Positions 1 to 54,055 of a stretch of 54,873 bases of DNA are shown here, one piece after another. A model generated the notes under the pieces. That model was given only the letters and a program-made list of their open reading frames with translations. It made no database searches and was not told the origin of the DNA. The stretch spans positions 1 to 54,873 of the forward strand of contig JAGLIO010000028.1 in NCBI GenBank assembly GCA_023142915.1. Reading direction: 5' to 3'. Position 1 is the first letter of the stretch, and every line of letters begins with the position of its first letter. The DNA is from Candidatus Parcubacteria bacterium (lineage in GTDB: Bacteria; Patescibacteriota; Patescibacteriia; Patescibacteriales; UBA12075). The position numbers were made by a program, and so were the translations under genes.

Positions 1-351
1 ATCCGCTTGTGGAGGTCAACTGCCCATTGCTATCCGCAAGCAGACAACAACGGCAGTTGTATTTTTCGAGCTATAAAAATTATGTAATTGTAGGCAGACA
101 TTAATAATCTATCATATATTCAAATAAATGACAATGAATAACACGTTTATAACAATGTTTATTAATTTTAAAAAAAATGTTATAATAATATTAATATTAA
201 TTCCTCATCCCCATGTCACTAATTAATCAAAAAATAATCGTTTTTTGTTTTATTCTATGAATACTGTAAATTTTTATTGACTTGATTTTTTTATTGACTT
301 TTTTTTATAAAATAGCTATTCTAATATTTCTACTAATATTTATTTAAAAAT

Positions 352-915
352 ATGACATTTGATACAATTTTAAAAATTTTAATGACCATAGGGATTCCAG
401 CGATTTTAAGTTGTGCAATAATAATAGGAAGAAAATTTCAATGTATTGATGCCCTAGAAAAACAAACTGAAAAAATTGAAACCAAGACAGACAAACTCAC
501 AGAAAGCATTAATTATATCAAGGGAAAAATTGAAACAAACTGGCGTGAAGAACTGGCGCCTGCTAGCTCTCCCATGAAATTAAACGAAAGAGGAGAAAAA
601 ATATTAAAAAAAAGCGGTATAAAAGAAATAATTGATACAAGATTAAGTGAATTTTTTAAAACAGTAAAAAATAAAAATCCTCGTAATGCTTACTGGGTTC
701 AAGAAAACGCAATTAGTACAATTTACAAATTACGCAAAGAATCGAAACTTCTACCGAAATTAGAGGAGTCTGCCTACGAAGCAGGAAGTGATGTTGACGC
801 TGTTTTATTTGTTGGAGGAATCTATCTACGTGACATAATTTTACCTAAATTTGAATTTAAACTTGAAGAGATTGACAAATATGACCCTAAAATAAATAAC
901 CCTCTAAAAACATAA
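352..915 (+). CDS. hypothetical membrane-anchored protein (N-terminal TM helix, coiled-coil-like segment)
   Basis: Intact 187-aa ORF. Hydrophobic N-terminus ILKILMTIGIPAILSCAIIIG. No family motif recognised. Confidence 0.5.
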   Translation: MTFDTILKILMTIGIPAILSCAIIIGRKFQCIDALEKQTEKIETKTDKLTESINYIKGKIETNWREELAPASSPMKLNERGEKILKKSGIKEIIDTRLSEFFKTVKNKNPRNAYWVQENAISTIYKLRKESKLLPKLEESAYEAGSDVDAVLFVGGIYLRDIILPKFEFKLEEIDKYDPKINNPLKT

Positions 916-9564: not shown

Positions 9565-10134
9565 TTATAAATATTTTAATATTTTTTTATCCATCCCCTT
9601 GTTATCAAATTTTTTTAAATATTTTTTTATCTTTTTTATGTTTAAATTTTTTAAATCCATTTCTTCAACATCAAATAAAACACATCCATTAAGAGACAAA
9701 TAAATCTGATCTAAAAAGGCTTTTTCAGGCTCGGCTATTAAAATAGAATTTATTTTTTTAAACCCCCAAAAATATTTTTCCTGGATTTGATGATAGCGTA
9801 TTACGGTATTGTTGATTTCATAGCTTTTGCAGCGTTTTATTGACGCCAAAGTAATAGCATGTGATTGCTGGCTTAAAATATTATAATAAGCAAGCGCCCA
9901 TTCAAAAGACAAATAGCTTGGCTTATAAATATCAATGCTGAATTTTTCCAAATCAACTCTTAGCGAATCAACCGCGTAATATCCGCGAATTAATCTTTTT
10001 AACTTGCCCTTTTTAACCAATCTGTTAATCGCGACTTTTAGGCTAGCTTCTCGCGTAGCTGATATTTTTTTAATATCATTAAAAGTAAAATAGCCTTTTG
10101 GTATTTTATTTAGTTTTTGAATTAATTTGTTCAT
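9565..10134 (-). CDS. AbiEi-like antitoxin / wHTH regulator (type IV TA)
   Basis: N-terminal wHTH-like FTFNDIKKI...AINRLVKKGKLKRLIRGYYAV. Paralogous to 17806-18402 (YKPSYLSFEWAL / AEPEKAFLD). Overlaps the NTase gene by 29 nt. Confidence 0.7.
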   Translation of the reverse strand: MNKLIQKLNKIPKGYFTFNDIKKISATREASLKVAINRLVKKGKLKRLIRGYYAVDSLRVDLEKFSIDIYKPSYLSFEWALAYYNILSQQSHAITLASIKRCKSYEINNTVIRYHQIQEKYFWGFKKINSILIAEPEKAFLDQIYLSLNGCVLFDVEEMDLKNLNIKKIKKYLKKFDNKGMDKKILKYL

Positions 10135-10801
10135 AAAGCTGCTCTATGATTTTATAATATTTTTTTGGCAAAAAAACTTGCAATTCATTTTTAAAATGCC
10201 TTTTTGTGTAATTCGCGATTTTATAATCAAAAATAAAATTTTTTCGCTGCAGTTTGGCAATATACCATAAATCAAAAATATCACGAGCTTTTTTTCTATC
10301 CAAAATCGCGGCTATTTTTAAATTTTTTAATTCATTCAAAGTCGGCACGAGCAGTAGCGGCGACAAAATACTAACAGGGCTTTTTATTAGAAGCAATTCG
10401 GTTTTTAATTTAAGTTTTTCTTTTGGTTTGCGGATTTCAATTTTCAATGAAAAATTATGTTTTAATTTTTTATCACTGACGTTAACTAAGCCAAACCAAG
10501 TATTTCGCTTATCTTTTATATCTTTTAATTTCCAATTATTATTTTCTTTTATGATTTTTCTTAAAAAATTTTCAAATTCAATATACTTTGCCGTTTTATT
10601 TAATATCAAATCAATATCCTCCGAATACCTTGGTGAATTATAAGCTAAGCGAAGCGCGGTTCCGCCGTAAAAAATGATTTTTGTTCCAAAATCATCATTA
10701 GCGAGCTTGTCCAAAAAAATCATTTCAGCCTCTTCCCTGATAATTTTATCAATGGAAATATCTAATTTTTTTTGATATTTATTTAATTCTTCCAAATTCA
10801 T
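10106..10801 (-). CDS. AbiEii/AbiGii-family nucleotidyltransferase toxin
   Basis: NTase motif IIFYGGTALRLAYNSPRYSEDIDL (DUF1814/AbiEii type). Confidence 0.8.
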   Translation of the reverse strand: MNLEELNKYQKKLDISIDKIIREEAEMIFLDKLANDDFGTKIIFYGGTALRLAYNSPRYSEDIDLILNKTAKYIEFENFLRKIIKENNNWKLKDIKDKRNTWFGLVNVSDKKLKHNFSLKIEIRKPKEKLKLKTELLLIKSPVSILSPLLLVPTLNELKNLKIAAILDRKKARDIFDLWYIAKLQRKNFIFDYKIANYTKRHFKNELQVFLPKKYYKIIEQLYEQINSKTK

Positions 10802-15111: not shown

Positions 15112-15170
15112 GATTCCCGATCATTTAATATAATACTCTGCGGGGCTAATGTGTGTCGGGAATGACAAAA
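15112..15170 (-). repeat. 59-bp hairpin-forming repeat element, copy A (inverted relative to copy B)
   Basis: The reverse complement ttttgtcattcccgacac...gcagag...ttatattaaatgatcgggaatc aligns with 17162-17220 at roughly 80% identity by eye. Its own termini gattcccga/tcgggaatc are inverted repeats. Confidence 0.8.
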
Positions 15171-16622
15171 AATAAAATGCCAGAACAAAAAAGCAAAAAT
15201 CAAGTTGATATATTGTTTGTCAATCCGCCGGTTTCGCAAGAAGAGCGCTATGGCATAAAACTTAAAGCCGGAGGGCAAACTTTGCAGACGGGTTTAGCGG
15301 TTTTAGCCGCTATCACACGCGCAAAAGGATATAATACGCGCGTTTTGGACGCAACCGCCTTGGAATTAAGTTATGATGAAGCAGTTAACGAGATATGTAA
15401 AATCAATCCAAAGTATATCGGCATAACCGCGGTTACTATTTCCATATTTAACGCCGTAGAGATAATTAAGCGCCTAAGAGCTAAAAATAAAAACTATACA
15501 ATTTTTTTAGGCGGTTCGCATATTACCGCGGTTCCAAAAGAAACTTTTAAAAGATTTCAAGAAATTGAAATCGGCGTAATCGGCGAGGGAGATATAACGG
15601 TTTTGGAATTAATTAAAGCTTGCGATGATAATGAGGATTTAAGCAAGATAAAAGGCTTGGTTTTTAGGCGCGGTAAAGAGTTGATAATTACGGAAGCGCG
15701 TGAGCCTTTTATGGATTTGGATTCTTTGCCAATGCCTGCATGGGATTTGTTCCCGAACATTGCTGAATATTATTATCCTCCCGCTCATACGGTTAAAAGA
15801 TTGCCAGCGACGGTGTTAATTACATCCAGAGGCTGTCCGGGAATGTGCACTTATTGCGATAATAAAGTTTTTGGCCGCCGCCTGCGCTGTTACTCCGCCG
15901 GTTATGTAATAAAAATGATAAGGCATTTGCAAAAAGAATACGGGATGCGGGAAATTCAGTTTCGGGATGATAATTTTCTTGTTTTCAAGGACAGGCTTAA
16001 AGAATTATGCAATCGTATTATTGATGAAAAAATTGATATAGTTTGGAGTTGCGCCGGGCGAGTTGACATGATAAATGAAGAGATGTTGGAGCTTATGAAA
16101 AAAGCGGGATGCTGGCAGATTTGGTACGGGGTTGAATCCGGCAGCCAAAAAGTTTTAGACACGATTAAGAAAAATACAAGTCCTGAAAAAATTAGAAACG
16201 CGATCAATTTGACAAAAGAGGCCGGCATTTCACCTTGCGGATTTTTCATGATCGGCATGCCGAATGAAACCGAAGAAGATATTAAGATGACAATAGATTT
16301 GTTGCTTGAGCTGCCATTGGATGAATTTCATATGACGCATTTAACGCCTTTGCCAGGCTCGGAAATACACGCGACCGCGCGCGATTACGGCGAGTTTGAA
16401 AATGATTGGAAAAAAATGAGCGTTTGGTCAACTATTTTTGTGCCCAAAGGCTTAAGCAAAGAAAAATTAACCTATTATTCAAATTTGGCGTTTAAAAAAT
16501 TTTATTTCCGCCCGAGAATAATTTGGCAATATTTATTAAAAATAAGATCACCTCGCCATCTATCTGTATATTTCAAGGCGTTTTTAGCTTTAATTTCTTA
16601 TGTTACGCAAAAAAAGAGATAA
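15162..16622 (+). CDS. B12-binding-domain (class B) radical SAM protein
   Basis: N-terminal Rossmann-like B12 domain (ILFVNPP, IGITAV, FLGGSHIT). Radical SAM motif ITSRGCPGMCTYCDN. C-terminal FYFRPR. Start at ATG 15162 (track: GTG 15153). Confidence 0.85.
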   Translation: MTKNKMPEQKSKNQVDILFVNPPVSQEERYGIKLKAGGQTLQTGLAVLAAITRAKGYNTRVLDATALELSYDEAVNEICKINPKYIGITAVTISIFNAVEIIKRLRAKNKNYTIFLGGSHITAVPKETFKRFQEIEIGVIGEGDITVLELIKACDDNEDLSKIKGLVFRRGKELIITEAREPFMDLDSLPMPAWDLFPNIAEYYYPPAHTVKRLPATVLITSRGCPGMCTYCDNKVFGRRLRCYSAGYVIKMIRHLQKEYGMREIQFRDDNFLVFKDRLKELCNRIIDEKIDIVWSCAGRVDMINEEMLELMKKAGCWQIWYGVESGSQKVLDTIKKNTSPEKIRNAINLTKEAGISPCGFFMIGMPNETEEDIKMTIDLLLELPLDEFHMTHLTPLPGSEIHATARDYGEFENDWKKMSVWSTIFVPKGLSKEKLTYYSNLAFKKFYFRPRIIWQYLLKIRSPRHLSVYFKAFLALISYVTQKKR

Positions 16623-16639
16623 TTATTAATTCAAAATAT

Positions 16640-17227
16640 ATGAACAAAAAAGAATTTACAATTGTATTATTAGTGTTGGTAGTTTTCGGCGTTATGTATC
16701 GCTTATTGGATTATCCGCCGAATTTTACTCCAATCGCGGCAATCAGCTTGTTTGCCGGTTATTATTTTAGAAGCAAATGGGTTTTTATATTGCCTTTGTT
16801 AATTTTGTTTTTAAGTGATATAATGATAGGGTTTTATGATTTTAAAATTATGCTCGCGGTTTATTTATGTTTCGCGATAATTCCTTTTTTAGGATTTTTA
16901 ATTAAAGGAAAAAACAAAACAGGCAAGACTATTTTTGCTTCGCTATCAGGCTCAATTTTATTTTTCGTAATCACAAATTTCGCGGTATGGTTTTTTGGAA
17001 GCTGGTATAGCCATGACTTCAGCGGTTTAATTAGCTGTTACACAATGGCAATCCCATTTTTCCGCAATACCTTAACAGGCGATTTATTTTTCAGCGGAGT
17101 AGTTTTCGGAAGCTTCGCGCTTTATCAGGTTTTCGCGGCAAAATTAATGGATAACCCTCACTTTTGTCATTCTCGACACTCCCAGCCTCGCAGAGAAATT
17201 ATATTAAATGATCGGGAATCTCTTTAA
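16640..17227 (+). CDS. small polytopic membrane protein, DUF6580-like putative (vitamin) transporter
   Basis: About 5-6 TM segments. YPPNFTPIAAISLFAGYYF and CYTMAIPFFRNTL motifs as I recall them for DUF6580 (unverified). Start at ATG 16640. The last 21 codons are encoded by repeat copy B. Confidence 0.65.
   Translation: MNKKEFTIVLLVLVVFGVMYRLLDYPPNFTPIAAISLFAGYYFRSKWVFILPLLILFLSDIMIGFYDFKIMLAVYLCFAIIPFLGFLIKGKNKTGKTIFASLSGSILFFVITNFAVWFFGSWYSHDFSGLISCYTMAIPFFRNTLTGDLFFSGVVFGSFALYQVFAAKLMDNPHFCHSRHSQPRREIILNDRESL
17162..17220 (+). repeat. 59-bp hairpin-forming repeat element, copy B
   Basis: See copy A. It forms the 3' end of the membrane-protein ORF (FCHSRHSQPRREIILNDRES). Confidence 0.8.
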
Positions 17228-17256: not shown

Positions 17257-17712
17257 ATGAAAAAAAAATATATCTATTATGAAAAAATTCTTTTTATACT
17301 AATAATTATATTAGTATTAACCGGCTGTACAACAGTTAAAACAAATTTGGTTTTACAAAATCCAAAAGAGCTTGGCGTTGAAGAGGAAGCCAAAGAAATT
17401 TTAGTAACTTTAAAAATTAACAACGGACAAGACGAAAAAGTTTTTGAACATAATATTCAAAAAGGAAAAACAGCGTTTGATTTAATGAAAGAATTGCAAA
17501 CTAAAGGCAGCATTGAATTTGTTTATGAGGAAAGCAATGTCGGGGTATTTGTTAATAGCATTAATAACATTGAAAATAACGTAAGTGATAATATTTTTTG
17601 GATGTTTTATGTAAACGATAAAATGGCAGGCGTTGGAATCGGCGCTTATGATTTGCAGAATGGAGATGTGGTAGAATGGAAATATATTAATACTGAAAAT
17701 ATAGATTTTTAG
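17257..17712 (+). CDS. lipoprotein with DUF4430 / transcobalamin-like C-terminal domain
   Basis: Lipobox LVLTGC. DUF4430-type motif IFWMFYVNDKMAGVGIGAYDLQNGDVVEWKY. Confidence 0.75.
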   Translation: MKKKYIYYEKILFILIIILVLTGCTTVKTNLVLQNPKELGVEEEAKEILVTLKINNGQDEKVFEHNIQKGKTAFDLMKELQTKGSIEFVYEESNVGVFVNSINNIENNVSDNIFWMFYVNDKMAGVGIGAYDLQNGDVVEWKYINTENIDF

Positions 17713-17805: not shown

Positions 17806-18402
17806 ATGAAATTTTTTGATATAATAGACAATATCAAACAGCCTATTTTTTCTTTGCATGATCTTAGGATGGCTAAGATTAATATATTTCCTTATCAAAT
17901 GACCAAGTGGACAAAAGATGGGCATCTGATTAAGATTAGGAACGGTTTGTATGCAATCGCGGATAAAAAGGATCAGCTGAACATGGAAATGATATCCCAT
18001 CTTTTGTATGAACCAAGCTATATCAGCTTGGAAAGAGCATTGTCAAAGTACGGTTTGATTCCGGAGATGGTTTACAATTCTACCGCAATAACCACCAGGC
18101 AAACCAAAACCTTTCAGAATGAATTCGGATCTTTTATGTATCGGAGTATAAAGAAAGATTTATTTTTTGGTTTTAAGAAAATAAAAGAAATGGGCGGAGT
18201 ATATTTATTGGCAGAGCCGGAAAAAGCGCTTCTGGATTATTTTTATTTGAATTCCGCGCGGATTAATGATTTGCATGATGTATCTGAATTAAGATTAAAT
18301 AAAGCGGTTATTAGGGGTTTGGATAAAAAAAAGTTAAAAAAATATTTAAAAGTATTTAGGAGTAAAAAATTGGAACAGATATGCTTACTTTTGAACAAAT
18401 AA
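17806..18402 (+). CDS. AbiEi-like antitoxin / wHTH regulator
   Basis: FSLHDLRMA...WTKDGHLIKIRNGLYAI and YEPSYISLERAL...LAEPEKALLD. Overlaps the downstream NTase gene by 22 nt. Confidence 0.7.
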   Translation: MKFFDIIDNIKQPIFSLHDLRMAKINIFPYQMTKWTKDGHLIKIRNGLYAIADKKDQLNMEMISHLLYEPSYISLERALSKYGLIPEMVYNSTAITTRQTKTFQNEFGSFMYRSIKKDLFFGFKKIKEMGGVYLLAEPEKALLDYFYLNSARINDLHDVSELRLNKAVIRGLDKKKLKKYLKVFRSKKLEQICLLLNK

Positions 18403-19157
18403 AAAAATATTATTCTGCAGAGCTGTTAATGAAGAGCCCCAAGGCCGTTTTGGTGGAGTATTTGCAATATGAATTATTGGATTCCATATTTCAGCAGACC
18501 GGCAGCGAATATCTCAGCTTTATCGGCGGAACAGCTATCCGCATAGTGTATAACAGTTCTCGGTTTTCAGAAGATATTGATTTTGACAATTTCGGGCTGA
18601 CTTTTGAGGATTTTGAGATTTTACTTAAAAGGGCTGTTGCTAATATGGAAGACAAGGGCTTTGACCTGGAGTTTAGGCTGATAGAAAAAGGCGCTTATCA
18701 TTGTTTTATAAAATTTCCTCAGATTTTATCAGCAAACGGATTGCCGCAGCAGCCAGGCGAAAAGATATTGGTGCGAGTGGATGCTGTGCGCAAGGAAAAA
18801 TTGTTTGAACCAAAACAGCATATACTGGATAGTTTCGCCGTGTACCGAAGAATATTGGTAAACGCGCCGGATATAATTTTATCGCAAAAGATTATTGCCA
18901 TTTTAGAAAGAAAGCGAGCCAAGGGGCGCGATTTTTATGACGTGTCGTTCCTCTTGGGGTTGGGCGATCCAAACTTTGAATATCTTGAGAAAATGAAAGG
19001 AATAAAAAGGAGTAATCTATTATCCGCGCTTTTAAAAAGAATTGACGAGTTGGATATGCCGTTGCTCGTTAAGGATGTCTTGCCTTTTTTGCAAAAACCT
19101 TCCGATCAGGAGCGGATATTGAGTTTTCGGGAGTATGTTAAGCAGAGATTGAAATAA
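18381..19157 (+). CDS. AbiEii/AbiGii-family nucleotidyltransferase toxin
   Basis: LSFIGGTAIRIVYNSSRFSEDIDFD and C-terminal KGRDFYDV. Confidence 0.8.
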   Translation: MLTFEQIKKYYSAELLMKSPKAVLVEYLQYELLDSIFQQTGSEYLSFIGGTAIRIVYNSSRFSEDIDFDNFGLTFEDFEILLKRAVANMEDKGFDLEFRLIEKGAYHCFIKFPQILSANGLPQQPGEKILVRVDAVRKEKLFEPKQHILDSFAVYRRILVNAPDIILSQKIIAILERKRAKGRDFYDVSFLLGLGDPNFEYLEKMKGIKRSNLLSALLKRIDELDMPLLVKDVLPFLQKPSDQERILSFREYVKQRLK

Positions 19158-20360: not shown

Positions 20361-21809
20361 ATGATTAATACTGATAATAAATTAGATTGCTTATTAATTT
20401 CTCCGCCGATTTTTTATAGCGAGAGCGATAATATATGGACAAAAGTTAATTCAAATTTTCCGCCATTAGGACTAGCGTCTATCGCGGCTTATGTGCGCAG
20501 TAAAAATTTCAGTGTTAGGATGATTGATTGCAATATTGAATCGCCGGCTGTTGAAAATTTTGAAACATTTTTTATTAAAAATTTTGTTAATAAATATAAA
20601 GATATAAGAGTAATCGGTTTGACCGCGATGACGCCTACAATAAAAAAGGCTTACCAAATAGCGCGGATATGTAAAAATTTTTATTCTGGCGCGTTGATTG
20701 TGTTTGGCGGGGTTCATCCGACCTTTGTGACAAAAGAAGTAATAAGCAAGCCGTTTATAGATATAGCTGTAATTGGAGAAGGGGAGCAGACATTTTTGGA
20801 AATTATAAAGCAAAAAGAATTAAAAAGCATAGACGGGATAGCATATAAAAATGGAAAAAATAAAAACGAGATAATTATTAATCAACCAAGAGCAAGAATT
20901 ATAGATTTGGATAAATTGCCAATGCCGGCTTATGATCTATTGCCGATTTTAAAATATAGGCCTGCAAAAGGCTCTTATAAGAGGCTGCCGGCAATGGCTA
21001 TGATGACATCGCGAGGCTGTCCCGGGCGATGCACTTTTTGCGCGAAAACTTTGGGCTTGCAATTATTTTTTAAATCAGCTAAAAAAATTTTTAAAGAAAT
21101 AAAATATTTAGTTAATAATTATGGAATAAAAGAAATACTTTTTTATGACGATACATTTACGGTTCACAAAAAAAATGTTATTGAATTATGTAATTTATTA
21201 TTAGCAAATAATATTGATATAACTTGGACTTGTTTTGCAAGAGTTGATTTTGTGGATGAAGAAATGCTTTATAAAATGAAAAAGGCCGGCTGTCATCAGA
21301 TAATGTACGGTGTTGAGAATATTGATCAAAGCGTACTCAAAAATATTAAAAAACAAATAAATATTAAGCAAGTTTTTAATGCGGTTAAGTTTACAAAAAA
21401 AGCCAAAATTGAATGCCGGCTTGCTTTTATGGTTGGCAATCCCGGAGATAGCGTGGAAATCGTAAAGAAAAATATTAAAGTTATTAAAAAATTAGATCCT
21501 GATTTGTTAATAGTAAATATAACTACTCCTTTTCCCGGTACGGAAATGTTTGAATGGGCTGATAAAAAAGGCTTGATTTTAAGTTATAATTGGGATGATT
21601 ATGATTTGGCAAATCCTGTCATGAGGCTTGAAGACATGAACGTGGAAGAAATTAAGAATTTATATAAAATCATGTATAGCAGTTTTTATTTTCGTCCCAG
21701 ATTTATTTTTAAAAAAATATTCAGCATCAGATCGTGCGAGGATTTTAAGGTTTTGTTCAGCGGTTTTACCGCGCTATTATCATTTTTTGCAATAAAAATT
21801 AAAAAATAA
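20361..21809 (+). CDS. B12-binding-domain (class B) radical SAM protein
   Basis: LLISPP, GLTAMTP, VFGGVHPT, MTSRGCPGRCTFCAK and FYFRPRF. Paralog of 15162-16622. Confidence 0.85.
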   Translation: MINTDNKLDCLLISPPIFYSESDNIWTKVNSNFPPLGLASIAAYVRSKNFSVRMIDCNIESPAVENFETFFIKNFVNKYKDIRVIGLTAMTPTIKKAYQIARICKNFYSGALIVFGGVHPTFVTKEVISKPFIDIAVIGEGEQTFLEIIKQKELKSIDGIAYKNGKNKNEIIINQPRARIIDLDKLPMPAYDLLPILKYRPAKGSYKRLPAMAMMTSRGCPGRCTFCAKTLGLQLFFKSAKKIFKEIKYLVNNYGIKEILFYDDTFTVHKKNVIELCNLLLANNIDITWTCFARVDFVDEEMLYKMKKAGCHQIMYGVENIDQSVLKNIKKQINIKQVFNAVKFTKKAKIECRLAFMVGNPGDSVEIVKKNIKVIKKLDPDLLIVNITTPFPGTEMFEWADKKGLILSYNWDDYDLANPVMRLEDMNVEEIKNLYKIMYSSFYFRPRFIFKKIFSIRSCEDFKVLFSGFTALLSFFAIKIKK

Positions 21810-24705: not shown

Positions 24706-26169
24706 ATGGCAAATGTCTGTTTAATATATCCAAGAGATATAAATTTAAATTTTTTTCCTTTAGGGCTGGGCTATATAGCTTCTTTTTTAAAGCAAAAAGG
24801 GCATAATGTAATCTTTCTTGATTTATCTGAAAAAGATTTTTATTTATTAAAAGATCCAAAGGTTTTTAACGCTGATATTGTCGGTATTAGTATTACAACT
24901 CCGCAATTGGGAATGTCAGAAAAGATAATAAAAATTTTAAAATCCATGAATTCTAAGCTGCCAATTTCGGTCGGCGGAATACATCCTTCTTTTTTTAAAG
25001 ATAAATTTCTTAAAGATTATAAAGATGTTGATTATGTCGTATATGGAGAGGGCGAGGAAACTACGCGAGAGCTTTGCGATTATATAGACGGAAAAATTAA
25101 AGATATAAATATGATTGACGGTTTAATATTCAGGATGAACGAAAAAATAATTATTAATAAGCCAAGAGAGATGATCTCTGATTTAAATTCTTTGCCTTTT
25201 CCGGCAAGAGAGCTGGTTAATTATGAAACTTATTTAAAGCCGCCAGGCTTGATTAGGGGAATATGGACTAAGCGAAGCGCCAATATTAGCACAAGCAGAG
25301 GATGTCCAGGAAGATGCACGTATTGCGGTGTGAATTATATATTTAATAGAAGCTATCGGCGAAGAAGCACGGACAATGTAATTTCAGAGATTGATTTTTT
25401 AGTGCGAGAATATAATATTGACGGTCTTTATTTTATGGATGATACATTTTTAATGAATACTGAATGGATTGAAGAATTTACAAAAAAATTTATTGCGAAA
25501 AAATATAATATAACTTGGTCTTGTTATGGAAGAGTGGATACCGTAAATGAGCGCATTTTAAAAGCAATTAAAAAAGCAGGCTGTGTCCAAGTTGAATATG
25601 GAATTGAATCCGGTTCCAAAGGAGTTCTTAAAAGAATACAAAAAAATACTGACATAGACAAAATAAAGCAGGCAATTAAAATGACAAAGGAGAATAAACT
25701 AAGGGCGCTTGGTTCTTTTATTTTCGGTTTTGTTGAAGATACGGAAGAGGATTTACAGGAATCAATTGATTTAGCCAGAGAATTAAATTTGGATTTTAGC
25801 GCCGCTTTTTTCGCCACTCCTTATCCGGCATCGGAAATTTACAAACAAGCCGTTTTAGAAGATAGAATCATAGAAAAAGATTTGTCAAAATGGTATGTGA
25901 GAAATAATAATATTTGGAGAGTTAATCTCAGTAAAGAAGCCATAACAAAGTATCGCAATAAATTTTTAAAAGAGACCAGGTTTAATAATCTCACCTTCTT
26001 TTTAAAAGACCCAAAGCTGTTTTTTAACCTGATTTTTTTTGTTATAAAAAATTATGACGCGATTTTTAAAGCGATTAAGCAATCTTTTAAAGCGCGCTCT
26101 TTTGATGATATAGGTTATTATTTTTATACTTATTTATCAAAAGATTTAGAAATTAGAAATAAAATATGA
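24706..26169 (+). CDS. B12-binding-domain (class B) radical SAM protein
   Basis: VCLIYP, VGISITTP, SVGGIHPS and STSRGCPGRCTYCGV. Confidence 0.85.
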   Translation: MANVCLIYPRDINLNFFPLGLGYIASFLKQKGHNVIFLDLSEKDFYLLKDPKVFNADIVGISITTPQLGMSEKIIKILKSMNSKLPISVGGIHPSFFKDKFLKDYKDVDYVVYGEGEETTRELCDYIDGKIKDINMIDGLIFRMNEKIIINKPREMISDLNSLPFPARELVNYETYLKPPGLIRGIWTKRSANISTSRGCPGRCTYCGVNYIFNRSYRRRSTDNVISEIDFLVREYNIDGLYFMDDTFLMNTEWIEEFTKKFIAKKYNITWSCYGRVDTVNERILKAIKKAGCVQVEYGIESGSKGVLKRIQKNTDIDKIKQAIKMTKENKLRALGSFIFGFVEDTEEDLQESIDLARELNLDFSAAFFATPYPASEIYKQAVLEDRIIEKDLSKWYVRNNNIWRVNLSKEAITKYRNKFLKETRFNNLTFFLKDPKLFFNLIFFVIKNYDAIFKAIKQSFKARSFDDIGYYFYTYLSKDLEIRNKI

Positions 26170-46979: not shown

Positions 46980-49900
46980 ATGCCAAGAGCATCTAAGTTT
47001 TTGTTAATACCTATTTCAGGTATTTTTTTATTTTTTTTCGGGTTGAATGTTGATTATGTTTCAGCGTCTTTAAGCGACGGTTTGGTTGGTCATTGGAATC
47101 TTGATAATGGAGAAACTATAGATTATTCAGGAAGGGGTAACAATTTAATTAACAATAATGCGATAAGCGCAAAAGGAGTATTTGGTATAGATGATACTGC
47201 TTTTGATTTCGAAAATGCCAATTCAAGCTATTTGTATATAGCAGATGATGACTATAATGGACTTGATGTTGTTGGTGATATGAGTGTGTCAACTTGGGTT
47301 AACTTTAAATCGCTACCTAATAGCAGATATGTTATTGTAGCTAAATATAATGAGAACATTGCTGAAAGATCCTATTTTTATTCTTTACAAAATGATGGTA
47401 TGGAATTTAAGCTACAAGCAATATTGTCCGCAGACGGAGTCGGTAATACTGTTCATTTACTTTCACCTTCGCATTTAATGGCAACAAGTACTTGGTATCA
47501 TTTTATTTGGGTTTATAATTCAACTGAGAGAACGGTAAATTTTTTTGTTGATGGAATAAATATTGGCGAAGCAAGCGGGGCACCAAATTCTTTGTATAAC
47601 TCAAATGTAACTTTTCAAATTGGAGGATATGCTCGTAAATGGCCAGCTTTTTATTTCGACGGCTCCATAGACGAAGTCCGAATCTACAACAGAGTCTTAT
47701 CCGAAGAAGAAATAGATGAGCTGTATAATCAATTTAACTCGCCGCCGCAGCCTGAAGATTTTTCTTTTGTTCATATGACAGATCCGCATATCGGAAGTAG
47801 TTGGATTCCGGGGCATAAGTGGTATGAAGAATTGTCTTATCCGCGTTTTACAGATGGATTATATGAAATTGGACAGCTGGAAGAAAAGCCTGATTTTATT
47901 TTGATGGGCGGGGATTTAGTTGAGTATGCTGAGTCAAGATGGCTTGGAGATTATCAGTCAATGATAGATAGTTTTACGGCGCAAACAAGTATTCCGGTTT
48001 ATGCAGTACCGGGAAACCATGATCGTTATATGTGGGCTACCGGCAGCGCTCTTTGCGGATTATCAGATGGTTTTAATTGTGATGATAAATTAGCAGAGTA
48101 TAAAAATCAAATTAATATTCCCGGGCAAGGGCTTGATGAAAATAATTATTTAAATCCAGACAACCCGCTTGATTATCGGTTTACGCATAAGGGCATACAA
48201 TTTATCGGTCTTGATACGGGAGCGGATTATATACCGGATTTTGAAATTAGGGATTTGTTTGTCAAAGTATCCGGCGATAAAGGCATAGAAGGAGACGGGC
48301 TTACAGATGAGCAAATGTCGGCTTTGGAAAATTTAGATTTAGAAACACCGAAAATTATTTTTATGCACCATCCGGTTTTAAGCGGCGGAAAAGATTATTG
48401 TTATGACAGTGAATGTCCGCAAAGCGTTTTGGAAGACGCGTCATTCGTAAATAATTATGACGAGTTTTTTAATTGGGCGGTAAGTTCAAATTTGCAATTA
48501 GCTTTAACCGGCCATACTCATCGGGCGGAAGTTTATGATGAGCATGATCGCCAATATGATAATATTGCCAAGGCGAAAAAACGCCCTTTATTTATTCAAA
48601 CCCAAAGCGCTACACATGATAGCTCTATCGACCATGGTTATCGTTTGGTGGATGTTGAAAGCGGTGCGGTTAATCCTCAAAACGCTTCCAGCACTAAAAA
48701 TTATATTAAATTAATCAGCCAATTAGAAACCGAAAGTAATCATGAATTTCGTTTATATGATTCTGAAGATGATTTAAAATATGTTAAAGTCGGCGATATA
48801 GATGGATTGTCAGCGCCGTTTTTTATTGCCTCAAGTTCAAAAAGAATATTGTTGTATGGCTTGGATGAAAATCGTATAAAATTGCAGGTATGGCAAAAGG
48901 ATGTTAACGACAAGAATTTTGGTTTAAATACTAAAATAGAAGGAGTTGTTTTGGATGATGTTGATTATGAAAATGATTTTGGGTATCGCATTGGCAATAT
49001 TTTTAAGCGCGATTTTGTTAATTTTCATTTGGAAAATAAGCTGGCGATGTTAAACGTAAAAAATATATCGTTTGAAGATAGCAATAAATATCAATTTGCT
49101 ATAAATTGGGATGATTTAATTGAAACAGAAGATATTAATAACTTAGAAGTAATGAATGATTTTGATCAAAATTCAGGAGAGATTTTGCAATTAAAAAAAC
49201 TTAAATATTCTATTATTGCCAAGCTTTTTTCTCCGGCAGAATTAGTTATAATTGATAATGACACAGGCAGCAGCACAGGAATTGTTAATCATGGATCAAT
49301 TGAAGAGATTGATTATTCTTTGAGCGATGAAGCGCGCGAACGAGTATTGATTTATGATGGCGAGGATTTAGCTGGCAAAAATTTTATTTATCGCGTGCGG
49401 GGACTGGAAGATATTTACGGCTCAGGCGATAATGATTTTAGCTTGAAAATTGTTTATCGCATTGATGATGAAAATGAGGAAGAAATAAAAGAAGTAAATA
49501 TAATCGGCATGCCGATTAACGCTTCAACAACTTATCAATTTTATGTTGATTGGGAGAATTTGTCAGATACTGGCGGCGTTATTATGGAAATTGACGAAGA
49601 CGGGGATGGAATTTTTGAAATTAGAGTTGAATTGGGGCAAGAAATTAATTCTGATAATCCTTATTGTTTAAGAATAAAAATGATTTTTGATTTGGAAGAA
49701 GAACTTGGAACGCAAGCAGATGAAAAAATTAATTTTATAATAGGCTTGATTAAAAAAAGCATAAATCCGGAGTGGTGGGACGGAGAGCATAAGCTGAATC
49801 AAGAAAATGGCGATAATGTATTTAAAACTGATTTAATAACAGTTCAAAAATTAAGATTGTTTTTAAGATTGGATTCTGTTTTTAGCGATAAAAAATATAT

Positions 49901-50165
49901 TCCGGAATTTATTGAAGATAAATTTGAATTGCCAGAAGATGTGAGAGCGGTTTTTGAGGATGTTTTGAACGGCTTATTAAATTCAGACATAACTTTGGTG
50001 CAATCGGCTGTAAATAGTTTTACGGAGGAAGTTGATTCCAAAAAAGATGAGAAAATATTAAAAAACGCAGAAAAGAAATTGGAAAAAGCTGATCAATTAT
50101 TGCATGATGAAAAAATACAAGTTGTGCAGTTTTGCCAACAGGCGTGGAGAGCGGTTAATTTTTAA
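46980..50165 (+). CDS. secreted LamG-like lectin + calcineurin-like metallophosphoesterase protein with a long uncharacterised C-terminal region
   Basis: Signal/anchor FLLIPISGIFLFFFGLNVDYVSA. LamG_3-type FDGSIDEVRIYNRVLSEEEIDELY. MPE motifs FVHMTDPHIG, GGDLVEY, VPGNHD and LTGHTHRAEV. Confidence 0.8.
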   Translation: MPRASKFLLIPISGIFLFFFGLNVDYVSASLSDGLVGHWNLDNGETIDYSGRGNNLINNNAISAKGVFGIDDTAFDFENANSSYLYIADDDYNGLDVVGDMSVSTWVNFKSLPNSRYVIVAKYNENIAERSYFYSLQNDGMEFKLQAILSADGVGNTVHLLSPSHLMATSTWYHFIWVYNSTERTVNFFVDGINIGEASGAPNSLYNSNVTFQIGGYARKWPAFYFDGSIDEVRIYNRVLSEEEIDELYNQFNSPPQPEDFSFVHMTDPHIGSSWIPGHKWYEELSYPRFTDGLYEIGQLEEKPDFILMGGDLVEYAESRWLGDYQSMIDSFTAQTSIPVYAVPGNHDRYMWATGSALCGLSDGFNCDDKLAEYKNQINIPGQGLDENNYLNPDNPLDYRFTHKGIQFIGLDTGADYIPDFEIRDLFVKVSGDKGIEGDGLTDEQMSALENLDLETPKIIFMHHPVLSGGKDYCYDSECPQSVLEDASFVNNYDEFFNWAVSSNLQLALTGHTHRAEVYDEHDRQYDNIAKAKKRPLFIQTQSATHDSSIDHGYRLVDVESGAVNPQNASSTKNYIKLISQLETESNHEFRLYDSEDDLKYVKVGDIDGLSAPFFIASSSKRILLYGLDENRIKLQVWQKDVNDKNFGLNTKIEGVVLDDVDYENDFGYRIGNIFKRDFVNFHLENKLAMLNVKNISFEDSNKYQFAINWDDLIETEDINNLEVMNDFDQNSGEILQLKKLKYSIIAKLFSPAELVIIDNDTGSSTGIVNHGSIEEIDYSLSDEARERVLIYDGEDLAGKNFIYRVRGLEDIYGSGDNDFSLKIVYRIDDENEEEIKEVNIIGMPINASTTYQFYVDWENLSDTGGVIMEIDEDGDGIFEIRVELGQEINSDNPYCLRIKMIFDLEEELGTQADEKINFIIGLIKKSINPEWWDGEHKLNQENGDNVFKTDLITVQKLRLFLRLDSVFSDKKYIPEFIEDKFELPEDVRAVFEDVLNGLLNSDITLVQSAVNSFTEEVDSKKDEKILKNAEKKLEKADQLLHDEKIQVVQFCQQAWRAVNF

Positions 50166-50232
50166 AATATATTGCATATTTTTTTAATTTAATATATTAT
50201 TATATTAAGCTTATATTGGTAAGCCTAAAAAA

Positions 50233-50329
50233 CTATAATTTTCCGAAGCGAGGTGAAAATCCTCCGCTGTCCCGCAGCTGTGATGTTTGTCTACAATAGA
50301 CAAGCTAAGCCAGAACGAGTTGATTATAG
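50233..50329 (+). promoter_or_regulatory. cobalamin riboswitch aptamer (short, AdoCbl-variant/class II-like)
   Basis: Closing helix ctataat/attatag. Core GAAGCGAGGTGAAAATCCTCCGCTGTCCCGCAGCTGTGA (50245-50283). 9-bp hairpin at 50285-50305. AGCCAG B12-box start at 50308. Confidence 0.75.
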
Positions 50330-50425
50330 CTTAATTAATTAATAAAACTCTTCGAGGATTGAGAGTTGGTTTTTAAACTAATTAGTTTCAAGCCATCTTT
50401 CCCTTTTTTAGAGGGAATTTTTTTT

Positions 50426-52216
50426 ATGAAAAAAAAGAATTTAAGCGTTATTATGTTATTAATTTTTATGATTTTTTTGTTAAGGCCGGTTTTTTCAATT
50501 GCCGGAGTAGATGACGCGATTACGTATTTAAAAGCGCAGGCTCAGGATTCTTGGATTACCCAGGCGTTAGCTGCGGCCGGTGAAACAACAATTGCGAATG
50601 ATCACTTAAAAAGCGTATCCGGTACCTTAGCAACGGATTACGCTAAAGCGATATTGGCAGTAGCGACCATAGGCGAAGATCCGGCTGCGTTTGGGAATAT
50701 TGACTATGTCGCAAAATTAAAAACTTATTACGCGAATAATCAGATGGGTGATGATGGATTGATAAATGATGATATGTGGTCAATATTGGCTTTAGCGTCA
50801 ATCGGAGAAGGAGCCTCTAACGAAGCCTTAAAAGCAAAAGATTTTATTTTGGATAACCAGAACGCGGATGGCGGCTGGGGTTATAGCGTTGGCGGAGATA
50901 GCGACACCAATGACACGGCAGCGGCAATAATTTCTCTTTTGGAAGCAGGAGTAAGCGAAACAGACGCTGTAATTATTAATGCTGTTTCTTTTCTCAGATC
51001 TGTTCAAAATGCGGATGGCGGCTTTGGCTGGACTCAAGGCTCAAATTCTGATTCCGGGTCAGACGCTTGGGTAATTTGCGCGCTGAACAAATTAAGTGTA
51101 CAGCCTGCCAGTTGGGAAAAAAACGGGCACAATCCGGTTTCGCATTTGGAATCCTTGCAAGACACGGACGGCGGATATTGGTGGGTTGCGCCCGGCGCAT
51201 CAGATTATAATAATAAGGCTATGACTACTTACGCTGTCATAGCCTTGAGCGGCAAGAGTTTTCCTGTTGCTTATTATTTAGGAGATTCATTGCCTGCTCC
51301 GGGCGAATATAGATTGCGTGTTGAAGGGGAGTTGAGCGCTATTTGTGATATTTCAATATACGGGGATAATGCGCTTGATTTGCTTATTAACGCGGCCGAT
51401 GAATGCGCTTATACTTATAATATTGAAGATACGTCGTATGGACCTTATTTAAATCAAATAAATAATGAAGCGGCAGAAGGGATGAATGGCTGGCTTTATT
51501 TCGTGAATTCCGTATCACCAACAGTGGGTTCCGCTGATTATGATTTAAGCGAAGGCGATGAAGTGTTATTTTATTATGGAGAATGGGGATGGAGTCCTGT
51601 TAGGCTTGTTATTGATAAAGAAATTATTGATTCCGGACAAAGCGTGAACGCGGCAGCAGAATATTTTCAGGATTCGCAGTGGAAAGCATTAGAGGGCGCG
51701 GTAATCAAAGGCGGCTCAGAGAATTATATTGCCGATTCCGCAGGTACTGTTATTATTACGCTTCCGGATGGTTTTTATTCTCTATATGCAGAGAAAGACG
51801 GTTTTGTTCGTTCAAATACTGAAGATTTAACGGTTGGAGACGGAATCGCGCAAAATATCAGCATGACTATTGAAATTGAACAAGGCGCAATACCAAATGT
51901 GGCCAGTGAGTCGCTAATTTTTGAAGTGAGTCCGGGACAATTGGATTTTGGAAAGACACAGCCGGGACAAGCTAGTGTTCAAACCGTAATTTTATCCAAT
52001 TCGGGAACAGTAAGTCTGGATATTACAGCGCTTGTGAACGGCGATCAGGTGTTTATTGATAATACTAAAATTAATAATAATCCTTGGAATCAATACCAGG
52101 AAAATCTTGAAGGAAGCGCTAATAAAGAGACCGAGGTAAACGTTGCCATACCTGAGAATTATACCGGTTCCGGAGTTAAAATCGGCGAGCTGATTTTTTG
52201 GGCAATGCCGAAATAG
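50426..52216 (+). CDS. secreted alpha/alpha-toroid (prenyltransferase/squalene-oxidase repeat) + DUF4430 protein, transcobalamin-like corrinoid-binding candidate
   Basis: Signal peptide MKKKNLSVIMLLIFMIFLLRPVFSIAG. Repeats NADGGWGYSVGGDSDTNDTAAAI, NADGGFGWTQGSNSDSGSDAW and DTDGGYWW. DUF4430 motif NGWLYFVNSVSPTVGSADYDLSEGDEVLFYYG. Then CarboxypepD_reg-like and beta-sandwich domains. Start at ATG 50426 with SD gaggga. Confidence 0.8.
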   Translation: MKKKNLSVIMLLIFMIFLLRPVFSIAGVDDAITYLKAQAQDSWITQALAAAGETTIANDHLKSVSGTLATDYAKAILAVATIGEDPAAFGNIDYVAKLKTYYANNQMGDDGLINDDMWSILALASIGEGASNEALKAKDFILDNQNADGGWGYSVGGDSDTNDTAAAIISLLEAGVSETDAVIINAVSFLRSVQNADGGFGWTQGSNSDSGSDAWVICALNKLSVQPASWEKNGHNPVSHLESLQDTDGGYWWVAPGASDYNNKAMTTYAVIALSGKSFPVAYYLGDSLPAPGEYRLRVEGELSAICDISIYGDNALDLLINAADECAYTYNIEDTSYGPYLNQINNEAAEGMNGWLYFVNSVSPTVGSADYDLSEGDEVLFYYGEWGWSPVRLVIDKEIIDSGQSVNAAAEYFQDSQWKALEGAVIKGGSENYIADSAGTVIITLPDGFYSLYAEKDGFVRSNTEDLTVGDGIAQNISMTIEIEQGAIPNVASESLIFEVSPGQLDFGKTQPGQASVQTVILSNSGTVSLDITALVNGDQVFIDNTKINNNPWNQYQENLEGSANKETEVNVAIPENYTGSGVKIGELIFWAMPK

Positions 52217-52250: not shown

Positions 52251-52763
52251 ATGAAAAAATTATTGTTAAATTTATTACTGATTATCAGCATATTGCTGCC
52301 GTTTTTTGGCGCGCGCGCGGCTGGTGTCAGCGTAAAACCTAAAGAATTAAATGTTAACGCGCAATTTGGAAAGGTTGTTGAAGCGGCGGTTTTGATAACA
52401 AATGTCGGAGATGAACCAGTGCTTTATCAAGTATATTCGGATTTATATCAAAAAAATATAGTTATCAGCCCAACTGATTTTCAATTGGAAGCAGGCGGCA
52501 GTCGGGAAGTAGCGATAAAAACGAAAATGTGGCGGAACGGAAAGTACGATTTTAATTTGTCAGTTGTCGCTCGTCCTTTAAATGCTTCCGGCTTGATAGC
52601 GGCTACGGGCGTTAAAATACCGATCAAACTCACTGTTTCAGGATGGTATTTTTGGGGTTTAGCCGCGCTAATGCTGTTTGTTGTTTTTGTGATAATTTTT
52701 CACCTCCCCATCTGCCGAAAAACCGTAGCGATTGTTTTTAGAAAAATCGCAAAGTCAAGGTAG
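52251..52763 (+). CDS. secreted beta-sandwich protein with C-terminal TM anchor, hypothetical
   Basis: Signal peptide LLLNLLLIISILLPFFGARAAG and C-terminal TM GLAALMLFVVFVIIF. Resembles the C-terminal domain of the upstream protein in pattern only. Confidence 0.6.
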   Translation: MKKLLLNLLLIISILLPFFGARAAGVSVKPKELNVNAQFGKVVEAAVLITNVGDEPVLYQVYSDLYQKNIVISPTDFQLEAGGSREVAIKTKMWRNGKYDFNLSVVARPLNASGLIAATGVKIPIKLTVSGWYFWGLAALMLFVVFVIIFHLPICRKTVAIVFRKIAKSR

Positions 52764-54055
52764 GGGGAGCGGTTTTTTATGTAATAGAGATCGTATTGTA
52801 TTTTTTTTAAAGTGTCTTCCAAAGTCGGGGAATGGTATTCATTGACTTGCGCCCAGCCGGAAAGTCCGGGTTTAACCAGCAGTCTTTCTTGGTAAAAAGG
52901 AATTTTCTCTTTTAAGCCCTTGATTAATTCCGGACGTTCCGGGCGCGGTCCGATAAAACTCATTTCGCCTTTCAGGATATTTATTAATTGCGGTAATTCA
53001 TCAATTCTGGTACGTCGCGTAAATTTTCCGAATTTGGTAACGCGCGGATCGTTTGTTTCGGTAATGCGGCCATCATTGTTTTCTTCGCGCATAGACCGGA
53101 ATTTGATTAAATTAAAAATTTTGTTATTTTTTCCCAGTCTTTTGCTAAGAAAAAAAATATTACCCTTGCTTTCAATTTTAATTATTAGCGCGATAATAAT
53201 CCAAAAAGGCATGCTGATAATTAAAAGAATTAAAGCTAGTATAATATCATAAAATCTTTTTAAAATGTTAAACCATTTTTTTTTGCCAACGCTGAGATTT
53301 TCCAAAAACCACATTTGGTTAATGGCTTCAATCGGAATTTTTCCAGTGATGGTTTCGTAAAAATTCGGCAAGCTGATGATGTTTATATTAAGCGGCAAGC
53401 AGGCAAACAAAGAATTTCTCAGTTCTCCGGATTGATGCGGGTCTGATGCCAGAATGATTGTTGATATTTTTTGCTGAGCAATAATTTTGTTCAGCTTTTT
53501 TGTATCGCTGGTTGTTATGATGCCGTGGATTTTATCAATTAAATTATCACCTACGATTAAAGCGACGCTAAGCCCCAGATGCGGTCTTTTGTTAAGGTAA
53601 TGTATAAGTTCCTTTACTTGGTTGTTGCATCCGATAAACGCGATTTTTTCTTTGGCAAGGCGTGAAACTAAAAGCCAATTAAATATTCTGCGCCAAAGAA
53701 AAAATAAGACAAGAAAAACAAAAAAATGAATTATCAGATTTGTTTTCGGAGCAATTGCTATTGCCGGATTAATATAGAAATACACAGCGCTTAAAAGTCC
53801 GGCAATACTGATTGAACGGACAGTGATTTGAAAAAATTTGGCGTTATTAACCGCTAGATGTAGATTATACAAATCGGAAATATAGAAAATAAGCAGCCAA
53901 AAAAGAAAAACCGTTGTAAAGGGCAATAAATGATTTTCCCAGTCAACAGCTTCAATAGCGCCTAAATTGCGAATATGCAAGGTTAAATATAGCGCGATAT
54001 AAAGAACCGCGATATCGCCGAATAGAAGAATGATTTTTTTTAATTTGTTGTTCAT
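52700..54055 (-). CDS. polyprenyl glycosylphosphotransferase (WbaP-like initiating sugar transferase)
   Basis: N-terminal TM helices and a central Rossmann-like domain. Bac_transf motifs KFRSMRE and RIDELPQLINILKGEMSFIGPRPERPE. Confidence 0.85.
   Translation of the reverse strand: MNNKLKKIILLFGDIAVLYIALYLTLHIRNLGAIEAVDWENHLLPFTTVFLFWLLIFYISDLYNLHLAVNNAKFFQITVRSISIAGLLSAVYFYINPAIAIAPKTNLIIHFFVFLVLFFLWRRIFNWLLVSRLAKEKIAFIGCNNQVKELIHYLNKRPHLGLSVALIVGDNLIDKIHGIITTSDTKKLNKIIAQQKISTIILASDPHQSGELRNSLFACLPLNINIISLPNFYETITGKIPIEAINQMWFLENLSVGKKKWFNILKRFYDIILALILLIISMPFWIIIALIIKIESKGNIFFLSKRLGKNNKIFNLIKFRSMREENNDGRITETNDPRVTKFGKFTRRTRIDELPQLINILKGEMSFIGPRPERPELIKGLKEKIPFYQERLLVKPGLSGWAQVNEYHSPTLEDTLKKIQYDLYYIKNRSPYLDFAIFLKTIATVFRQMGR

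Follow-up and report, generated by a model that had tools for sequence, protein, structure and literature searches.

Towards the end of contig JAGLIO010000028.1 of a Candidatus Parcubacteria bacterium (assembly GCA_023142915.1), a short leader resembling a cobalamin riboswitch precedes a gene for a secreted protein, here called the binder, in which an alpha/alpha toroid is followed by a DUF4430 beta domain, as in transcobalamin. The question raised by this locus is whether a bacterium of this lineage captures corrinoids outside the cell with a transcobalamin-like protein, under the control of vitamin B12 itself. Patescibacteria (the candidate phyla radiation) account for much of the diversity of bacteria; most of them have not been cultured, their biosynthetic capacity is minimal, and to our knowledge their acquisition of cofactors is largely unexplained. 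Cobalamin riboswitches ahead of B12 transport genes are textbook knowledge. The analysis covered the whole stretch of 54,873 bp, referred to as the window, and its outcome is that the locus is probably a corrinoid-scavenging operon, consisting of a B12-sensing OFF riboswitch, a transcobalamin-like capture protein, and a membrane partner.

The leader was recognized by a general RNA family model. When the entire 54.9-kb window was scanned on both strands with cmscan, the sole Rfam match at the gathering threshold was to RF00174 (Cobalamin), at 50200-50338 of the forward strand, with a score of 38.2 bits against a gathering cut-off of 31.5 bits and an E-value of 3.5e-6 (2.5e-8 when the scan was restricted to a 401-nt region). 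This is far above chance level, and upholds the identification made in a preliminary description of the locus. The strings named there were also all located at their positions, namely GAAGCGAGGTGAAAATCCTCCGCTGTCCCGCAGCTGTGA at 50245-50283, the AGCCAG motif, CTATAAT and ATTATAG as the two halves of a closing helix, and an internal 9-bp hairpin (Table 1). Judged from its sequence, the aptamer of this cobalamin riboswitch is compact and spans 50233-50329.

Relatives of the locus were sought by scanning one genome per GTDB species, which gave 338, and the best 80 of these 338 loci (numbered with an L) were used for locus counts. Compensatory changes were evident among them. The first helix of the aptamer, P1, reads CUAUUAC/GUAAUAG in L001 and CUAUAAU/AUUAUAG in the window, which amounts to two compensatory changes, while L081, the closest relative, whose binder protein is 79% identical to that of the window, differs by a compensatory G-C to A-U change in P4 and a U-A to C-G change in P6. 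The Rfam alignment has a longer P1, starting from 50200 or 50207, but this was dropped in favor of the short helix 50233-39/50323-29, because that helix alone covaries. A covariance model, R1, was built from the window and ten Rfam-detected relatives, with the structure supplied by hand. RNAalifold, when given these 11 aptamers, recovered P4 and P6 but missed P1 and P5, because the outer helix was misaligned. In the R1 alignment of 80 matches, which is fitted to the model, 92.6% of cells pair, compared to 64% after shuffling, and both-sided changes occur in 344 cells, compared to 105 expected from shuffled data. A weak promoter-like site upstream would set the transcript start directly before the aptamer, and its position fits an aptamer start at 50233 rather than 50200.

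The class of the aptamer was less clear than its identity. The preliminary description had placed it with the AdoCbl-variant or class II type, and it is true that the peripheral P6 extension of class I aptamers is missing, P6 being a single 9-bp hairpin. The best model, however, was RF00174 and not RF01689, and in clan competition RF00174 was the model retained. Loci L004, L007, and L009, which have the same architecture as the window, were assigned to RF01482 by Rfam, and among the sampled relatives RF01689 was best only for L047. From these sequence comparisons, the class II label is not established for the window aptamer.

The association between riboswitch and gene was found to be widely conserved. 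The binder family has at least 632 detectable members, annotated in databases merely as "DUF4430 domain-containing protein", and the named ones come nearly all from Patescibacteria (Falkowbacteria, Buchananbacteria, Kerfeldbacteria, and others). At the gathering threshold, a riboswitch of Rfam clan CL00101 was present 5' of the gene in ten of 15 sampled loci. R1 matched upstream, on the coding strand, in 75 of the 80 loci (median distance from the protein match, 152 nt), and all of its 80 matches in 734 kb adjoin toroid or DUF4430 genes. Of the five R1-negative loci, one is cut off on the 5' side, while L024 has a sub-threshold match to RF00174, making it a 76th locus; in the remaining three (L031, L045, and L053) a riboswitch was detected neither by R1 nor by an E-value Rfam scan. 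This conserved linkage supports the earlier proposal that the riboswitch controls the binder gene. 

Four of the loci (L007, L010, L044, and L011) carry extra R1 matches, each preceding a separate gene, so that split versions of the binder have a switch of their own; these genes specify either a toroid-only protein of about 330 aa with a C-terminal transmembrane anchor, or a small secreted DUF4430-like protein. Many family loci, including L002, L006, L008, L013, and L021, are in bulk metagenome-assembled genome records that bear the title "uncultured Gammaproteobacteria" or "Candidatus Saccharibacteria", while a family protein is recorded under "Candidatus Methanoperedens". Such titles look like taxonomic mislabels or mis-binning.

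The binder is 596 aa long, as first described, but its start codon occupies 50426-50428 instead of lying at 50428. By eye, its N-terminus (MKKKNLSVIMLLIFMIFLLRPVFSIA, followed by G) resembles a Sec signal peptide, with an S-I-A cleavage motif and a family consensus of PxxVxA. The domain content given in the preliminary description was reproduced by a Pfam scan, with DUF4430 (PF14478) matched at aa 314-385 (40.6 bits, cut-off 23.8) and the toroid matched above cut-off by Prenyltrans (PF00432, 34.5 bits) and SQHop_cyclase_C (PF13243, 30.7 bits), and the three QxxDGG[WFY] repeats lie at aa 145, 194, and 245. An AlphaFold2 model made from 65 homologues had a mean pLDDT (predicted local distance difference test) of 86.6. 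When this model was compared with the PDB using Foldseek, ranks 1 to 15 were all transcobalamin, intrinsic factor, or haptocorrin (E-values 1.8e-11 to 2e-9), in alignments of about 420 columns that covered both domains, while terpene cyclases and prenyltransferase beta subunits ranked after them and matched the toroid only. The transcobalamin-like two-domain fold of the earlier account is supported by the model. In addition, the binder-family profile matches the isolated beta domain of transcobalamin (5no0, E-value 2.4e-4), and within the beta domain of the binder Cys307 and Cys327 are invariant and compatible with an extracytoplasmic disulfide.

Toroids of this kind are shared with enzymes. 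In squalene-hopene cyclase, the central Asp of the DVDDTA motif is the catalytic acid. A DxDD motif is absent from the entire binder sequence, and the segment aligned to DVDDTA, although in a weak 7.9-bit stretch, reads SDTNDTA without variation, its Asn being kept by 65 of 65 sequences. The missing motif, together with Asn at the position of the general acid, argues for a binder and not an enzyme, and the ligand is predicted to be a corrinoid.

Between the aptamer and the AUG lies a plausible expression platform. The length of about 97 nt given previously holds for the aptamer, but the functional unit is longer, as it also includes a P13 hairpin and a terminator-like hairpin that would sequester the Shine-Dalgarno (SD) sequence. 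P13 is conserved as CUCUUCGAGG...GAGAG in L001, L004, L009, L007, L019, L027, and L081, and falls inside the RF01482 matches of relatives. It is followed by a hairpin of variable sequence, at an equivalent position in the relatives too, and then by the terminator-like hairpin, the 3' half of which holds an SD-like GAGGG (50411-50415), 10 nt 5' of the AUG. A strict in-frame search recovered the same design, a hairpin CUCCCUCGAAAAGGGAGA with U5-8 and AUG, from at least 31 of the 80 loci, 29 of which have the SD-like 3' half. When the 3' half of the window hairpin was blocked, RNAfold paired its 5' half with the loop and the 3' strand of P13 (-15.7 kcal/mol, compared to -20.3 kcal/mol for the alternative fold), and the same rearrangement was predicted for L004, L027, and L019. 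Two mutually exclusive states are therefore predicted. 

A contact between aptamer and platform may also exist, as GUCC of L5 (50270-73) is complementary to GGAU of the P13 loop (50356-59) in the window. Across 24 loci the L5/L13 complementarity was 3.54, compared to 3.06 for shuffled partners, with one in 500 shuffles as high and runs of 3-4 bp; CGCG in L5 occurs with CGCG in L13, and CCCG in L5 with CGAGG in L13. Compared to known cobalamin riboswitches (CL00101, comprising RF00174, RF01482, and RF01689, and the compact env8-type class II with its L5-L13 kissing loop), the leader shares GAAG, GGUGAAAAUCC, the CCC of L5, and AGCCAG, as well as a four-way junction, a downstream P13, a site before a probable B12-acquisition gene, and presumed OFF logic. 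It differs in that the aptamer is very short (97 nt), its P6 having 9 bp and lacking any peripheral extension, and in that P13 does not contain the SD sequence but would control a separate hairpin, the U-tract of which runs into the AUG.

The preliminary description spoke of the binder gene as the controlled open reading frame. It is indeed led by the riboswitch, but it belongs to a conserved operon with a gene for a 170-aa membrane protein, which lies immediately 3' of it in 72 of the 80 loci. The family profile of this protein matches Hydin ASH repeats (E-value 1.5e-11), and the C-terminal hydrophobic stretch is present in 56 of 62 cases. With hhalign it could be aligned to aa 494-590 of the binder (E-value 1.2e-4, probability 55%), suggesting an ASH-like domain common to both, while in a BLASTP comparison of the two the similarity was confined to their signal peptides. 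It is proposed to tether the binder to the membrane, or to act as its partner. The last 64 nt of the gene (52700-52763) are shared with the 3' end of a convergent Bac_transf sugar-transferase gene, and the convergent layout is repeated in L081, L082, and L001.

In many relatives the operon extends further, to a solo DUF4430 gene (about 150 aa) and, after it, a gene for a DUF6580 membrane protein (about 180 aa). DUF6580 is present in 38 of the 80 loci, and none of the operons contains CbiO/CbiQ genes. The AlphaFold2 model of DUF6580 (pLDDT 90) has six to seven helices, and its top Foldseek matches in the PDB are S-components of energy-coupling factor (ECF) transporters, namely FolT, ThiT, RibU, and PanT (TM-scores 0.5-0.63). 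Some members also match PF12822. The only PDB sequence match of the family profile is 6FNP_A (E-value 0.0016). The entry 6FNP is the ECF-CbrT vitamin B12 transporter (PMC5997447), and the length (182 aa) and label ("Membrane protein") of chain A are the grounds on which this chain is taken to be CbrT. A natural DUF6580-DUF4430 fusion (P0127, 337 aa, from a 1.9-kb contig of a Logan assembly) provides Rosetta-stone evidence that the two proteins act together. Upstream of the operon, relatives carry nrdJ (18 loci) and genes for adenosyltransferases of the CobA/CobO/BtuR (19 loci) or PduO (four loci) type, while another group of loci has ftsA-ftsZ-nrdR in this position. In that group (L056-L079, from Komeilibacteria and others; e.g. 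L056, 769-3714) the operon comes directly after ftsA-ftsZ-nrdR and is followed by genes for a small coiled-coil/transmembrane protein and prfB, unlike the nrdJ-cobO neighborhood.

The window has its own DUF6580 gene, followed by one for a solo DUF4430 lipoprotein, and this DUF6580 is the probable corrinoid permease of the binder system. Three genes for B12-binding radical SAM (B12-rSAM) enzymes, one directly 5' of DUF6580, are the visible consumers of the cofactor, and because of them the organism needs corrinoids. The local layout in L081 is the same as that of the window. Genes of the cob/cbi pathway were not found in the window, which is part of a genome; Patescibacteria are generally known for their inability to make B12, and the organism presumably cannot make it either.

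A mechanism can be proposed from these parts. The leader (50233-50425) would be a cobalamin-sensing OFF riboswitch with a compact four-way junction as its aptamer. Binding of a corrinoid would fix P13 through the L5-L13 loop-loop contact and so leave the downstream strand free, allowing the 8-bp hairpin with its U8 run to form at the start codon and bury the SD sequence, by which transcription would end, translation would be blocked, or both. When no ligand is bound, the 5' half of the terminator hairpin would instead be paired to the loop and 3' strand of P13, and the operon would be expressed. The Sec-exported binder would then clamp one corrinoid between its toroid and its DUF4430/SLBB domain, in the manner of transcobalamin, and the membrane-anchored ASH-domain protein of 170 aa would probably keep it at the cell surface. 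From there the captured corrinoid may be handed, probably by way of a DUF4430 lipoprotein, to the S-component-like permease DUF6580, and the cofactor would finally reach B12-dependent enzymes, the radical SAM enzymes in the window and NrdJ in relatives. That the locus encodes a B12-repressed extracellular scavenger, as originally suggested, agrees well with the riboswitch linkage, the nearby B12-rSAM genes, and the nrdJ and CobO/PduO adenosyltransferase genes of relatives. The complete relay, in which a riboswitch governs binder, ASH receptor or tether, DUF4430 lipoprotein, and DUF6580 permease in Patescibacteria, perhaps without a dedicated ECF module, is put forward more tentatively, as a possibility with the odds somewhat against it.

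Several observations weigh against this interpretation. When superposed on transcobalamin by Foldseek, the model gave a root-mean-square deviation of about 24 A and TM-scores of 0.27-0.44, and therefore the inter-domain pose of the apo model differs from that of the holo crystal structures. For the toroid by itself, prenyltransferase beta subunits gave the better superposition, its sequence is nearer to squalene-hopene cyclase (profile E-value 1.6e-23) than to transcobalamin, and the eukaryotic cobalamin-binding family PF01122 was not matched by the binder in Pfam at E <= 0.01. Within the leader, the L5-L13 complementarity is no more than 3-4 bp, the terminator loop of the window is without the UCGAA that most relatives have there, and the antiterminator of the window is the weaker one. 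Finally, the DUF6580 and solo DUF4430 genes of the window are 33 kb from the binder; neither Rfam nor R1 detected a riboswitch before this pair or before the B12-rSAM genes, and an ECF A/T module and btuCDF were not found within the window.

The alternative that survives best is that corrinoid is bound but not for import, the protein serving to sequester B12 from competitors or hosts, to store it at the surface, or, directed at a host cell that makes B12, as adhesin or receptor, in which case the 170-aa protein and DUF6580 would form no relay. It would account for a window operon without a transporter gene and for the two extra beta-sandwiches, one of them choice-of-anchor-D-like, which are typical of surface and adhesion proteins, and Patescibacteria are often episymbionts. 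It is nevertheless unlikely, given that about half of the relatives hold an S-component-like protein in the riboswitch-led operon, beside nrdJ and adenosyltransferase genes, that a DUF6580-DUF4430 fusion is known, and that being repressed by B12 is what would be expected of an uptake system. 

A toroid/DUF4430 pair could also bind a different tetrapyrrole. In Lactobacillus sakei, Lsa1839/Lsa1840 are a split, transcobalamin-like alpha+beta pair, linked to an ECF transporter, for which heme binding has been proposed, with heme modelled into it and heme-uptake phenotypes reported (bioRxiv 10.1101/864751). For the present family, heme or a similar ligand is very improbable, as 75 of the 80 loci have a cobalamin riboswitch ahead of the gene, the neighbors are B12 users and B12 adenosyltransferases and not heme genes, and the sole PDB sequence relative of DUF6580 is the B12-specific CbrT. 

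That the binder is instead an enzyme of the terpenoid cyclase or prenyltransferase type, active on envelope lipids or glycans and B12-regulated via the neighboring B12-rSAM glycan cluster, is hardly credible and was rejected for its lack of a DxDD motif, since the strong similarity of the toroid to squalene-hopene cyclase, its QW-type repeats, and the position of the gene on the margin of a large glycan-biosynthesis cluster with three B12-rSAM genes are outweighed by the invariant Asn at the aligned general-acid position, a toroid that is always joined to a DUF4430/SLBB ligand-binding domain, export of the protein to a place remote from prenyl diphosphate pools, and conserved neighbors in relatives that are nrdJ, cobO, DUF6580, or ftsAZ-nrdR, and not glycan genes.

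The corrinoid-scavenging operon can be compared with several known systems. With the transcobalamin, intrinsic factor, and haptocorrin family (PF01122; 2BB5, 2PMV, and 4KKI), the binder shares secretion and the order of domains, an alpha6/alpha6 toroid at the N-terminus and a beta-grasp (SLBB/DUF4430) domain after it; the relationship of the beta domain is detectable by profile, and the top structural matches extend over both domains. It differs in having no PF01122 match, in keeping the terpene-cyclase-like QxxDGG repeats, in adding two C-terminal beta-sandwiches, and in having a bacterial membrane partner rather than CD320 or cubilin. The preliminary description considered this fold combination poorly characterized in bacteria, which is correct experimentally, but it was described computationally in 2007 by Burroughs, Balaji, Iyer & Aravind (PMC1796856), who reported exported bacterial fusions of an alpha/alpha toroid to SLBB and predicted that they scavenge B12 in organisms without B12 synthesis. 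The same study noted solo SLBB paralogues in the same operon and linkage to ECF-type genes, and proposed a bacterial origin of animal transcobalamin. Their proteins and the present ones have in common a signal peptide, a toroid N-terminal to SLBB, Ig-like extras, and a solo SLBB in the operon. The 2007 set came from Firmicutes and archaea with CbiO/CbiQ-type ECF genes, whereas here the hosts are Patescibacteria, the linked gene is DUF6580, and the riboswitch and ASH-domain membrane partner are near-universal.

The fold of DUF6580 is that of the S-components, such as CbrT of the Lactobacillus delbrueckii ECF transporter (6FNP, PMC5997447) and solitary ones such as BtuM, but it is a separate Pfam family and EcfA/A'/T genes were not seen nearby. 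The gene order nrdJ-cbrS-cbrT-pduO of L. delbrueckii resembles nrdJ-cobO-[riboswitch]-binder-...-DUF6580 of Patescibacteria; CbrS is named just once in the ECF-CbrT paper (PMC5997447), and ECF systems are normally described without extracellular binding proteins. Riboswitch-regulated, high-affinity extracellular capture that feeds a membrane transporter is also found in Bacteroides, with BtuG and BtuH/DUF4465 (PMC6143338, PMC10404256, and PMC13398666), but these have unrelated folds (a beta-propeller and DUF4465) and belong to TonB-dependent systems of an outer membrane, whereas the organism of the window is single-membrane. BtuF is functionally analogous to the binder and structurally unrelated. 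In the literature searched, the coverage of which was incomplete, we found no B12-binding biochemistry for any bacterial toroid + SLBB/DUF4430 protein, and no paper that names DUF6580 or describes a cobalamin-riboswitch module in Patescibacteria or the candidate phyla radiation. The concept itself was predicted in 2007, and the additions here are the near-universal riboswitch, the ASH-domain membrane partner, the linkage to DUF6580, and the Patescibacteria lineage.

Other features of the window are of more local interest (Table 1). Just 5' of the aptamer is an inverted repeat, GCTTAT-ATTG-GTAAGC (50208-50225), a separate hairpin that L081 keeps with loop changes and L001 lacks; it may be what is left of a terminator of the upstream gene, or belong to the promoter region. 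That upstream gene, for an exported LamG/phosphoesterase protein, is syntenic in L081 (1187 aa), but not in the wider family. The three B12-rSAM genes lie in or next to a surface-glycan cluster of about 30 kb, which includes GT2 and GT4 transferases, many SAM methyltransferases, SPASM radical SAM proteins, a DegT aminotransferase, a Wzx-like flippase, and PMT_2, a gene content that suggests B12-dependent methylation of envelope glycans. An SMC homologue (11017-13677) has 886 aa, compared to the 1181 positions of the NCBIfam profile, which matched its head regions in two stretches, and its coiled coil may be shortened.

Table 1. Features of the riboswitch-led locus, of the remainder of the window, and of relatives with a second riboswitch (nucleotide positions are those of the window unless a locus is named; aa, residues of the binder).
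Feature	Position	Strand	Basis or remark
Promoter-like site TTAATA-17-TATATT	50189-50217	+	Consensus scan, 9/12 matches; weak evidence
Aptamer core	50233-50329	+	RF00174; R1, 88 bits; pairing in R1 alignment; compensatory changes vs L001 and L081
P1, CUAUAAU/AUUAUAG	50233-39 with 50323-29	+	
P4 hairpin	50250-50263	+	
P5/L5	50267-50279	+	L5 = UCCC
Short P6 hairpin	50285-50305	+	9 bp, 3-nt loop
B12 box AAGCCAGAAC	50307-50316	+	
AGCCAG	50308-50313	+	Part of B12-box region
P13 hairpin AACUCUU-CGAGGAUU-GAGAGUU	50346-50367	+	Loop = proposed kissing partner of L5
Variable spacer hairpin between P13 and terminator	50368-50394	+	RNAfold minimum free energy structure
Terminator-like, SD-sequestering hairpin, 8 bp	50399-50417	+	Terminator scan
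U8 run abutting AUG	50418-50425	+	
Transcobalamin-like secreted protein (binder), 596 aa	50426-52216	+	Pfam, NCBIfam, AlphaFold2, Foldseek
Signal peptide	aa 1-26		Judged by eye
Alpha/alpha toroid	aa ~27-285		
DUF4430/SLBB beta domain	aa ~293-386		
CarboxypepD_reg-like beta-sandwich	aa ~390-480		Weak match, aa 429-481
ASH/PapD-like domain	aa ~497-596		Weak PapD-like/choice-of-anchor D match, aa 499-543
170-aa type I membrane protein	52251-52763	+	Signal peptide, ASH/MSP/PapD-like beta-sandwich, C-terminal transmembrane helix
Bac_transf sugar-transferase	52700-54055	-	
AbiEi/AbiEii type IV toxin-antitoxin pair	9565-10801	-	
B12-binding radical SAM enzyme	15153-16622	+	PF02310 + PF04055; NCBIfam B12-rSAM; directly 5' of DUF6580
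DUF6580 membrane protein, ECF S-component-like fold	16640-17227	+	PF20221, 172 bits
Solo DUF4430 lipoprotein, lipobox LTGC	17257-17712	+	PF14478, 75.5 bits; paralogue of binder beta domain
AbiEi/AbiEii type IV toxin-antitoxin pair	17806-19157	+	Immediately after DUF4430 lipoprotein gene
B12-binding radical SAM gene	20361-21809		PF02310 + PF04055
B12-binding radical SAM gene	24706-26169		PF02310 + PF04055
1061-aa exported protein, LamG (Laminin_G_3) + calcineurin-like metallophosphoesterase	46980-50165		Directly upstream of riboswitch
Second riboswitch with its gene, L007	2421-3662		
Second riboswitch with its gene, L010	2500-3700		
Second riboswitch with its gene, L044	3149-3641		
Second riboswitch with its gene, L011	3132-3649	-	

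For the biology of the Patescibacteria, the operon probably represents a near-universal B12-acquisition module of one large branch, with parts that are defined and clonable and with a regulatory read-out built in. It also makes the transcobalamin fold tractable in a bacterial protein; that this fold binds B12 in bacteria has been a computational prediction since 2007. While the concept would not surprise a specialist, the system is widespread, and tying DUF4430 and DUF6580 to corrinoid transport would improve the annotation of thousands of metagenomic genes and, with it, predictions of B12 dependence in communities. If the relay is real, it would be the first case of a bacterial extracellular transcobalamin-type binder that feeds an S-component, and a living model of the prokaryotic stock proposed as the source of animal transcobalamin. 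With this system, the acquisition of B12 by the candidate phyla radiation becomes directly testable, and so does the bacterial transcobalamin fold.

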